From a virus (Duplodnaviria > Caudoviricetes): DNA of 64,000 nt. The notes under the pieces are model-generated. The model was not told the origin of the DNA, did not search any database, and was given only the letters and a program-made list of their open reading frames with translations. Below, piece after piece: positions 22,467 to 22,573 of the stretch (its first letter is position 1; each line of letters begins with the position of its first letter). The stretch is taken from IMG/VR virus record IMGVR_UViG_3300043429_000173, positions 1,489 through 65,488 of that record. One strand, given 5' to 3'. A program made the translations under genes and the position numbers.

Positions 22467-22501
22467 TATATACATCTCTGTACATCTCTGTATAATTATG
22501 T

Positions 22502-22573
22502 GTAAGGATTTTTAATCCCTAGCTTTCTCTCCAAAGTAAGCTGAAGGCCCGGCTCCCCCGTCGGGCCTTTTTT
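22502..22573 (+). ncRNA. Candidate trans-acting anti-RBS small RNA
   Basis: TATAAT at 22491-96; three hairpins; loop TCTCTCCAAAGT complementary to several early-gene RBSs. Confidence 0.5.
22544..22573 (+). terminator. Intrinsic terminator at the convergence of the two arms
   Basis: AAGGCCCGGC-TCCCCC-GTCGGGCCTT followed by a T run. Confidence 0.85.

Follow-up and report, generated by a model that had tools for sequence, protein, structure and literature searches.

A candidate small RNA at the gene-arm junction of an uncultured phage, with predicted pairing to ribosome sites of early and replication genes in the same genome

Between the converging gene arms of an uncultured 65-kb phage, in the 64,000-nt stretch of its DNA that was analysed here (the window), lies an element of the plus strand (22491-22575) composed of a -10 box, two hairpins and an intrinsic terminator. 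It is a conserved unit and not a chance hairpin, and the loop of its second hairpin (22526-22537) is, by its sequence, perfectly complementary over 8-12 nt to the ribosome-binding sites (RBSs) of eight plus-arm genes located 4-22 kb away. Its anatomy, its complementarity with the accompanying statistics, its synteny, the conservation of its -10 box, the predicted exposure of its loop and the co-variation of loop and ribosome sites are established. Because the loop mirrors these sites, and because loop and sites change together in relatives, it is probable (roughly 65% by our estimate) that the RNA pairs with the ribosome sites of early and replication genes and throttles their translation. We take the element itself to be the gene of a small RNA or, failing that, a conserved module of RNA with which the plus-arm transcripts end.

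Anatomy and synteny of the element

The sequence features described in the initial annotation are all present, namely a TATAAT at 22491-22496, the GGATT/AATCC and AGCTT/AAGCT hairpins, and a terminator with a TCCCCC loop. Hairpin 1 (22506-22518), seen in MFE folds, pairs GGATT (22506-22510) with AATCC (22514-22518) across TTT and starts 9 nt past the -10 box, near the expected 5' end of the RNA (about 22502-22504). In hairpin 2 (22521-22542), AGCTT (22521-22525) and AAGCT (22538-22542) enclose the 12-nt loop TCTCTCCAAAGT (22526-22537), and this loop, UCUCUCCAAAGU, is a candidate anti-Shine-Dalgarno seed, whose CUCCAA core has an unpaired probability above 0.9 in the predicted fold; the reverse complement of 22524-22539 reads TTACTTTGGAGAGAAA. 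The intrinsic terminator (22543-22575) comprises a hairpin at 22543-22570, with an 11-bp GC-rich stem and the TCCCCC loop, and a T-run. It serves the plus strand only, the minus-strand hairpin being followed by AGCTTACTTT, and it stands directly 3' of the RNA body, as in independently transcribed sRNA genes of the bacterial type. A 10-bp repeat, TACATCTCTG, occurs twice in tandem (22471-22490) between the preceding stop codon and the -10 box; this pair is found only in the window and in its 98% twin, L119.

The element follows the last gene of the plus arm, a conserved gene of 61 amino acids (GDSFFVPC...GVRIWRI; 22281-22466, plus strand) recognized from its open reading frame, homologs and alignments, which anchors the RNA by synteny in all relatives: the RNA unit stands behind it in L002, L003, L004, L014 and many others. 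Among 110 distinct regions downstream of homologs of this gene, 52 bear a terminator within about 140 nt, and CTCC occurs in 50 of these 52 distinct syntenic loci. In the alignment of close relatives CTCC is nearly invariant and the hairpin stems differ in sequence. All 12 clade-A bodies that were folded share the position of a predicted 5' hairpin, which is built from at least six different stem sequences and, in clade-A sequences, begins 5-9 nt past the -10 box (counted by eye). The main stem of the sister clade shows co-variation and has seven U-G pairs, which fit a plus-strand RNA only. RNAalifold, for which 16 close relatives were aligned plainly with MAFFT, recovered four pairs only, all of the terminator, as an alignment by sequence does not bring the stems into register; the support for hairpins 1 and 2 is thus that of the per-sequence folds. 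The folding energy of the body ahead of the terminator modestly beats that of shuffled sequences (z = -1.46 in the window, with 15 of 200 shuffles as good; z from +0.5 to -2.8 in 13 relatives).

No Rfam family reached its gathering threshold anywhere in the window. At the element in the loci of 18 relatives no sRNA family did so either, the sole match being an unrelated int-alpA RNA in L177, and a permissive scan of 22400-22650 (E<=10) listed ten matches, all of them sub-threshold sRNA look-alikes. Cultured relatives were found neither by blastn with 21900-23200 nor by a search with the clade-B protein; tblastn with the 61-aa protein produced one weak match, in Sulfitobacter phage phiGT1, in which another gene, and no RNA, comes next.

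Complementarity to plus-arm ribosome sites and its co-variation

All RBS matches listed in the initial annotation could be located. The longest, of 12 nt, covers the RBS (63980-63991, plus strand, as are all the following) of the first early gene, which encodes 203 aa from an ATG just past the window end and lies downstream of a TTGACA-17-TATAAT promoter at 63910-63938. Matches of 11 nt are found at 1434-1444, directly 3' of the palindrome GGGCTTATTTAAGCCC and at the RBS of a 356-aa ATPase-like gene (ATG 1449), and at 17773-17783, the RBS of a conserved 134-aa gene (ATG 17785). Those of 10 nt fall on the RBSs of a further 134-aa gene (2545-2554, after the palindrome GGGCTTAATTAAGCCC; ATG 2561), of a 403-aa metallopeptidase/vWA-like gene (4239-4248, in a palindrome-plus-RBS cassette; ATG 4254) and of a 175-aa gene (8183-8192; ATG 8197), and those of 8 nt on the RBSs of a 122-aa gene (9905-9912; ATG 9921) and of a 99-aa Hjc-like nuclease gene (12661-12668; ATG 12674), the latter match being exact and its start region having the lowest duplex energy of all (-26.3 kcal/mol). 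In every target the match ends 1-8 nt ahead of the start codon. The initial annotation had called the targets early genes; the matches are real, but they spread over the whole plus arm and include genes of the replication module (ATG 12674 and 17785), so that this description is too narrow. Furthermore, a single palindrome-plus-RBS cassette, present in three copies, supplies the sites at ATG 1449, 2561 and 4254, which are hence not independent.

Three further observations stand apart from these eight targets. First, a possible second kind of target is the RBS and ATG of a 61-aa gene (9731-9744; ATG 9743), to which 14 nt of the hairpin-1 region (22508-22521) are complementary. Second, a 10-nt match at 7669-7678 is located inside a coding sequence. 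Third, the C-rich terminator loop had been put forward as a second seed, and sites of the GGGG type are indeed confined to the plus arm (4 of 45 start regions, vs 0 of 52 on the minus arm); across relatives, however, their link with a C-rich terminator loop amounts to a weak trend, and this seed was not adopted.

Contiguous complementarity to the RNA of at least 8 nt was found in 11 of 45 plus-arm start regions vs 0 of 52 on the minus (structural) arm (Fisher p=1e-4), with only 8 of these 11 matches using the hairpin-2 loop. Duplex energies of -12 kcal/mol or below were likewise commoner on the plus arm (21/45 vs 6/52; Mann-Whitney p=0.002), and ACTTTGGAGA occurs three times in the window vs 0.06 expected, a number that none of 100 shuffles reached. 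Canonical Shine-Dalgarno complementarity is similar on both arms (mean 4.7 on the plus and 4.4 on the minus arm), and the enrichment is therefore not simply one of site strength. Gene starts for these comparisons were called by a crude custom script. It left out any start region at a record end that fell short of 36 nt, and its rows were used without manual removal; there are errors in the start-region sets, since at least the start of the primase gene was miscalled (20093 instead of 19445).

These counts also bear on the plainest alternative, namely that the element is an ordinary operon end, a terminator with stabilising hairpins whose pyrimidine loop fits purine-rich sites as any CUCC sequence would. 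Such a fit does arise by itself to some degree: when the RNA body was shuffled with CTCC held fixed, 1.2 start regions on average (maximum 8) were matched over at least 8 nt, and both the weak z-scores of the folds and the lack of excess in two relatives, G002 and G009, accord with this explanation. However, none of 1000 such shuffles, and none of 500 in a second run, reached the count seen with the window RNA; the minus arm contributes no match in its 52 start regions, 50 of the 52 syntenic loci retain CTCC, and, as described below, the lineage-specific flanks fit and an orthologous target co-varies. An ordinary operon end is thus improbable in our judgement.

The expectation that the loop would track RBS changes in relatives held in three lineages and in one orthologous gene. 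Three site dialects, TT-GGAG-AGA, AA-GGAG-CGA and AA-GGAG-AAT, are used in the three lineages, and each loop fits its own: the plus-arm GGAG is flanked by TT/AGA in the window (G000), by AA/CG(A/T) in G003 and by AA/AAT in G004, and the corresponding loops read UCU-CUCC-AA, UCG-CUCC-UU and AUU-CUCC-UU. A matrix of duplex energies computed with full-length RNA bodies was not diagonal, being dominated by RNA length and GC, and contiguous-match counts were used instead. The cross-genome matrix of these counts, RNAs against start regions, is block-diagonal, with 11 own start regions matched by the G000 RNA vs 0-4 in other genomes, 6 vs 0-2 for the G003 RNA, and 2-9 start regions matched within the G004-6 block. 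Out of 500 CTCC-fixed shuffles for each genome, the observed count was reached by 3 in G003, 11 in G004 and 23 in G001; enrichment is only borderline in G005 (30) and G006 (33), and there is none beyond CTCC in G002 (262 as good) or G009 (182). The independent switches number about three, related genomes sharing loop and dialect by descent.

The G004 ortholog of the ATPase-like gene (ATG 1449) carries CAAGGAGAAT, which matches G004's own loop over 10 nt. In seven genomes, the window and six relatives, the start regions of the 134-aa gene at ATG 17785 match their cognate RNAs over 11, 8, 7, 11, 9, 9 and 7 nt, and the diagonal sum of the cognate pairing is equalled or exceeded in only 8 of 5040 permutations. 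Matched single-base changes are seen in GGAGAGAA/UUCUCUCC vs GGAGAGCA/UGCUCUCC, and another in AAGGAGAAU vs ACGGAGAAU. A wider search from the 134-aa protein brought in just one more locus with both this gene and the RNA, L238, with a 7-nt match by eye.

Co-variation would look alike if the motif were a DNA or protein-binding site, that is, if a phage factor recognised TTGGAGAGA at early genes and, inverted, at the arm junction, in which case RNA-RNA pairing would have no role. Such a site would work in either orientation, and three of the targets (ATG 1449, 2561 and 4254) abut the palindromic, operator-like sequence that had already been noticed in the initial annotation. On the other hand, every target copy sits at Shine-Dalgarno distance, its match ending 1-8 nt before the ATG; the copy at the junction, between the -10 box and the terminator, lies in an unpaired part of the fold predicted for 12 of 13 relatives; and the U-G pairs of the sister clade point to a plus-strand RNA. 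We therefore consider a DNA or protein site very improbable. Read on the minus strand, the junction motif is also a perfect early-type site, and it could perceivably be the true ribosome site of a tiny unannotated gene after the 2005-aa gene; in L003 an ATG does follow 7 nt past it. Yet none of the start codons ATG, GTG and TTG stands 4-12 nt downstream of the minus-strand GGAG in the window, and one occurs there in only 20 of the 52 loci, where neither frame nor length is conserved. For these reasons the micro-gene, which has next to no probability, was rejected.

Transcription of the element

The pairing of the junction RNA with plus-arm sites, which we prefer to these alternatives, leads to the question of how the RNA is made. 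A sigma-70-type promoter is predicted at 22469-22496 on the plus strand, with TATACA (22469-22474), a 16-nt spacer and TATAAT (22491-22496) directly preceded by TG; it scored 10 of 12 matches in the promoter scan. The -10 hexamer, TATAnT, is invariant in all 16 aligned close relatives, in an alignment with a mean column identity of 63%, and it is kept both where it overlaps the stop codon and where it lies 10-25 nt past it, and a TGn extended -10 is present in 8 of 17 relatives. The worry expressed in the initial annotation about a poor -35 element is eased by this arrangement, and an own promoter stays a prediction. Metatranscriptome contigs from three runs with parts of the phage had word depths of 0.28, 1.03 and 0 over 22504-22670, contigs being unable to show RNA ends.

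The same pairing element might instead have no promoter of its own and form the shared 3' UTR of plus-arm polycistronic mRNAs, acting either in cis, where it would fold back onto ribosome sites further upstream on the same transcript, or in trans once processed. No terminator separates the element from the 61-aa gene (stop at 22466), so that a 3' UTR may be the only form in which the RNA arises. Moreover, the -10-like box of the sister clade overlaps the stop codon and is so near the outer stem that transcription beginning from this box would truncate the stem, and a small protein gene followed by anti-Shine-Dalgarno hairpins parallels the ccaF1-CcsR arrangement (PMC8034643). Nevertheless, the invariance of TATAnT (16/16), the TGn (8/17) and a hairpin placed at the predicted +1 go beyond what a mere UTR explains, and we regard the UTR as a rather unlikely origin.

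Proposed mode of action and relation to known systems

In the mechanism that we propose, a host-type -10 promoter (22491-22496) would start an RNA of ~72 nt near 22502-22504, which would carry the 5' hairpin, display the loop UCUCUCCAAAGU on the short second hairpin and end at the intrinsic terminator (22543-22575). The loop would copy the ribosome's anti-Shine-Dalgarno core, CUCC, with a private extension on both sides, and this extension would fit the TT-GGAG-AGA dialect of the phage's early and replication-arm ribosome sites. Once paired, the RNA would cover the Shine-Dalgarno sequence to within 1-8 nt of the start codon and keep 30S subunits off these mRNAs, and it would thereby damp a regulon of at least eight plus-arm genes and spare the structural arm, whose sites use another dialect. 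Transcription from an own promoter, repression rather than another outcome, and its timing are what we infer here. If the mechanism is correct, the element would represent a new ncRNA family of wide occurrence, whose mode of action is clear and easy to test, it would explain why early and late ribosome sites of one phage differ in dialect, and it would offer a compact natural tool by which sets of genes are switched off through a sequence tag.

The RNA would work like the anti-Shine-Dalgarno sRNAs and the c4 RNA of phage P1, and it belongs to neither. Among the former, the cuckoo/alpha-r14/CcsR1-4 RNAs of Alphaproteobacteria are described as short RNAs with adjacent hairpins and anti-Shine-Dalgarno pyrimidine loops, in which the loops are kept and the stems vary (PMC4615179, PMC8034643); ar14/cuckoo repeat the loop motif CCUCCUCCC in 2-4 hairpins (PMC4615179), and the CcsR RNAs are cut from the ccaF1 3' UTR, directly behind the gene of a 71-aa protein (PMC8034643). 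Like these, the junction RNA has a hairpin loop with anti-Shine-Dalgarno pyrimidines, variable stems and a small protein gene upstream (61 vs 71 aa); the ccaF1-CcsR-like order, with the anti-Shine-Dalgarno hairpin RNA directly 3' of that gene, recurs with CTCC in 50 of the 52 loci. Unlike these cellular RNAs, however, it has a single CUCUCC loop with a lineage-specific extension and no CCUCCUCCC, and its predicted targets are the phage's own genes. It also falls short of the ar14 family (RF02344), with 13.6 bits in cmscan vs a gathering threshold of 58.8, and the upstream 61-aa protein, which has no Pfam match, lacks the DUF1127 of the ccaF1 type.

Exposed C/U-rich loops for pairing to the G-rich ribosome sites of several mRNAs are likewise a feature of the 6C/B11 sRNAs of Gram-positive bacteria (PMC6486639) and of the Burkholderia anti-hemB and toxic sRNA; all of these differ from the junction RNA in being cellular genes with different loop motifs. 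The best Rfam scores for the window were in fact those of anti-hemB (RF02837; 18.6 bits vs 49.5) and of the betaproteobacterial toxic sRNA (RF02278; 17.8 vs 50), both below threshold. The c4 RNA of P1/P7 is a trans-acting phage RNA whose loops pair around a ribosome site of a phage mRNA and block translation; it is processed from a longer transcript and controls one operon, that of the antirepressor, within a temperate immunity circuit (PMC12197685). The junction RNA shares with it the predicted loop complementarity to distant phage RBSs (8-12 nt at eight sites), but here the target tag is common to about eight genes scattered over a genome of lytic type. The C4 family (RF01695) was not among the cmscan matches for 22400-22650 at E<=10.

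Temporal control in lytic phages is a matter of transcription, complemented by a few protein-based translational controls such as T4 RegA/RegB. RegB and RegA are described as shutting off T4's own early mRNAs post-transcriptionally at GGAG-type sites and leaving late mRNAs alone (PMC1702504, PMC3014915), with RegB cutting within GGAG (PMC1702504). By analogy, GGAG-type early ribosome sites are the predicted target here as well, and it is the effector that differs, a protein in T4 and, as we propose, an RNA that pairs with GGAG and its flanks. The phage sRNAs that came up in our literature search and in passages of a 2025 review act on single operons or on the host, and this search, which covered partial texts, returned no phage sRNA that addresses its own early-gene regulon via a co-evolving ribosome-site tag.

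A wider reading, which taken as a whole we hold only tentatively and doubt more than we trust, is that translation is switched from early to late by an RNA throughout a group of uncultured freshwater and marine phages of about 40-65 kb that have a DUF927 primase and PolA. In each of them a private GGAG extension would be written into the non-structural ribosome sites, the RNA at the arm junction would imitate the anti-Shine-Dalgarno tail together with that extension, and this one RNA would silence the non-structural regulon and let canonical late (and host) sites escape. Were this so, these phages would have in an RNA what T4 has in RegA/RegB, and the principle would be a general one. Tag and loop would co-evolve, and the always-adjacent 61-aa protein might be a partner of the RNA, as a chaperone or maturation factor. 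This protein matches no Pfam family (E<=0.01), no PHROG family and no PDB sequence below E=0.06, a Foldseek search gave no match at E<=0.001, and the best Z of a VIA search, 5.7, lay within the tool's stated noise range; its AF2 model, with a pLDDT of 93, has a beta-alpha-beta-beta fold.

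Anatomy and possible origin of the putative junction RNA

We propose, at a probability of roughly two in three, that the putative ~72-nt RNA encoded where the two arms converge base-pairs with the ribosome binding sites (RBSs) of the plus arm. The latter (1-22466, + strand) carries small early genes together with those for an ATPase-like protein, a metallopeptidase/vWA protein, PolA, an SNF2 helicase and a DUF927 primase; the minus arm (22572-63470, - strand) carries the structural genes, and the two converge on a gap of 105 bp (22467-22571). The first element in this gap is a tandem 10-bp repeat, followed by a TATAAT -10 box (22491-96; TATACA-16-TATAAT in a promoter scan, 10/12 matches), hairpin 1 (22506-18), hairpin 2 (22521-42), whose loop is UCUCUCCAAAGU, and a terminator hairpin of 11 bp with a T-run (22543-75, + strand). 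The terminator serves the plus strand, because no T-run lies behind the hairpin on the minus strand. In the predicted ensemble the loop core CUCCAA has an unpaired probability above 0.9; fold z-scores of the pre-terminator body are modest, RNAalifold run on a sequence-only alignment did not recover hairpins 1 and 2, and metatranscriptome contigs gave no usable cover of the locus. We considered and rejected a micro-ORF read from a ribosome site on the minus strand: at the required distance the window offers no start codon, and any start at all occurs in just 20/52 loci.

As to its origin, the evidence allows both of two routes. The RNA might be cut from read-through transcripts, given that no terminator lies upstream of it, or it might be transcribed from its own promoter, which the conserved -10 box favours. 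Among 16 aligned close relatives the TATAnT hexamer is invariant at a mean column identity of 63%, and it either overlaps the stop codon of the preceding gene or lies 10-25 nt past it; a TGn extended -10 occurs in 8/17 relatives. The 5' hairpin sets in 5-9 nt after the box (counted by eye), i.e. at the expected transcription start, and is built from at least six unrelated stem sequences among the relatives.

The source record has 65,488 bp (the window being its bases 1489-65488) and an IMG/VR completeness rating of 100%. Its ends overlap by ~140 bp (window 63860-64000 and the record start, G000:C1:1-143), a G-rich stretch that takes in the early promoter; the genome may therefore have been assembled in circular form or be terminally redundant. 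At the head of the early region stand two host-type promoters close to consensus (TTGACA-17-TATAAT), at 349-375 and 63910-63938; the latter is predicted to drive the first early gene, the one with the 12-nt target at its RBS. On the minus strand ahead of the structural operon (63640-63700), a TATACT box without a -35 element lies behind a G/C hairpin; like the box of the RNA it is a bare -10, and the two might share their timing.

Complementarity to start regions

All RBS matches listed in the initial annotation are present, and they end 1-8 nt before the ATG, i.e. at Shine-Dalgarno distance. With start regions taken as -25 to +3 of a crude custom gene call (45 on the plus arm, 52 on the minus arm), contiguous complementarity of at least 8 nt to the 42-nt RNA body is found in 11/45 plus-arm versus 0/52 minus-arm regions (Fisher p=1e-4); eight of these matches involve the hairpin-2 loop, one involves hairpin 1 and two are seemingly incidental. 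Predicted duplex energies of -12 kcal/mol or lower follow the same division (21/45 versus 6/52, p=0.002), whereas complementarity to a canonical Shine-Dalgarno is about equal between the arms. When the body was shuffled with CTCC fixed, a mean of 1.2 and a maximum of 8 matches were obtained, so that 11 was never reached in 1000 trials, nor in a second set for the window (0/500); the excess therefore lies in the flanks and not in a generic anti-Shine-Dalgarno core. These shuffles, together with the arm specificity and the loop-site co-variation among relatives, contradict the alternative of a plain terminator region with a pyrimidine loop arisen by chance. A shared motif working at the DNA or protein level is an unlikely alternative that fits badly with targets that keep a constant Shine-Dalgarno spacing and with a junction copy framed as RNA.

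On the favoured reading, the RNA would mimic the anti-Shine-Dalgarno tail of the ribosome plus a private extension, mask plus-arm ribosome sites and leave alone the structural arm, where (T)AAGGA and TAGGAG sites predominate; when it would act is something we infer. The predicted pairing spans the Shine-Dalgarno and stops 1-8 nt short of the start codon. Pairing over the Shine-Dalgarno near the start codon is the classical sRNA geometry for blocking 30S binding. A second seed, separate from the anti-Shine-Dalgarno loop, may be provided by hairpin 1, whose region 22508-22521 is perfectly complementary over 14 nt to the RBS/ATG (9731-9744) of a 61-aa gene at 9743.

The arms also differ in dialect, GGAG occurring in 25/45 plus-arm and 13/52 minus-arm start regions of the window. 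Three window targets (1414-4254) are copies of one GGGCTTAATTAAGCCC palindrome-plus-RBS cassette and so are not independent, which qualifies the match counts. A similar arrangement occurs in a distant relative, G009 (L218), several early genes of which carry a short palindrome (CTAATTAG core) just 5' of a repeated RBS cassette (AGGAGTACAGCG-ATG).

Co-variation of loop and site

The window and eight whole related records were analysed alike, and counts of start regions with at least 8 nt of complementarity to own versus foreign RNAs formed a block-diagonal matrix: 11 own regions versus 0-4 in other genomes for the window RNA, six versus 0-2 for that of G003, and 2-9 inside the group versus 0-3 outside for the three RNAs of G004-G006. 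Minus-arm regions gave 0-1 matches to their own RNA in every genome compared. The pattern arises because the flanks of the plus-arm GGAG differ by genome and fit the genome's own loop: TT-GGAG-AGA faces UCU-CUCC-AA in the window, AA-GGAG-CG(A/T) faces UCG-CUCC-UU in G003, and AA-GGAG-AAT faces AUU-CUCC-UU in G004. Of 500 CTCC-fixed shuffles, those reaching the observed count numbered 0 for the window, 3 for G003, 11 for G004, 23 for G001, 30 for G005, 33 for G006 and 47 for G010, with no enrichment beyond CTCC in G009 (182) and G002 (262), G001 and G002 being records from which the early region is largely absent. Three lineages thus show a clear signal, some a borderline one, and two none.

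Single genes tell the same story. For the 134-aa gene (ATG 17785), cognate pairing in seven genomes measures 11, 8, 7, 11, 9, 9 and 7 nt and includes matched single-base changes in both RNA and site, and the diagonal sum is reached by only 8/5040 permutations of RNAs among genomes; the site of the ATPase-like gene, ACTTTGGAGAG in the window and CAAGGAGAAT in G004, fits its own loop in each of these two lineages. The expectation that the loop follows RBS changes in relatives is thus borne out in three lineages and at the 134-aa gene. Of the initial proposal of a trans-acting sRNA, the anatomy and the complementarity are confirmed and the interpretation is partly supported; the C-rich terminator loop, put forward as a second seed for GGGG-type sites, gave no more than a trend.

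The conserved unit and known systems

The gene directly upstream of the RNA encodes a 61-aa protein that belongs to no Pfam or PHROG family; its fold is predicted confidently (pLDDT 93), with no convincing match among solved structures in the PDB. Members of the family are spread very widely among uncultured phages, and residues G15, S17, F19, P21, G55, R57 and R60 are invariant. About 200 loci were gathered from viral and metagenome contigs, anchored on the primase and then on this protein. The closest relatives, in which the neighbouring primase-like protein is 57-69% identical, have in this gap a TATAAT/TATACT box, a 5' hairpin, CUCC within a loop or a single strand, and a terminator. An intrinsic terminator lies within ~140 nt of the small gene in 52/110 distinct downstream regions, 50 of these 52 containing CTCC, and the remaining 58 run straight into the converging gene. 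In five distant relatives (L178, L180, L188, L189, L198), the small gene is followed by tRNA T-arm lookalikes (GGTTCAAATCC) and no RNA unit.

In action the RNA resembles the bacterial anti-Shine-Dalgarno sRNAs of the cuckoo/CcsR family, which likewise lie behind a small protein gene (PMC4615179, PMC8034643), as well as 6C (PMC6486639) and the c4 RNA of P1/P7, described as blocking a phage ribosome site in trans (PMC12197685); in purpose it resembles T4 RegB, which destroys early mRNAs by attacking GGAG (PMC1702504). By the comparisons made it belongs to none of these families: its Rfam scores fall far short of threshold, and DUF1127 is missing from the protein encoded upstream. No Rfam model reached threshold for the junction RNA of the window, of its relatives or of a sister clade, the best sub-threshold scores in the window being to cellular sRNAs with anti-Shine-Dalgarno loops. 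In the literature searched and the review passages, no phage sRNA targeting a regulon of the phage's own early genes was found. Overall, the analysis partly supports an anti-Shine-Dalgarno RNA, carried by the phage and acting across a regulon, whose site tag co-evolves with it.

The equivalent junction position of a large sister clade is occupied by another RNA of greater length, the stem of which (CAGUGAyn/nrUCACUG) co-varies and contains seven U-G pairs that fit only a plus-strand RNA. Across its alignment (L049, L053, L059, L060, L066, L071 and others) a single-stranded segment, GGUCUCUGAAGUGG, hardly varies, and an inner loop reads CUCUCUCCUCC. One collected locus (L177:5-82) carries an int-alpA RNA (RF02996, 37.3 bits, above gathering) that is unrelated to the junction element.
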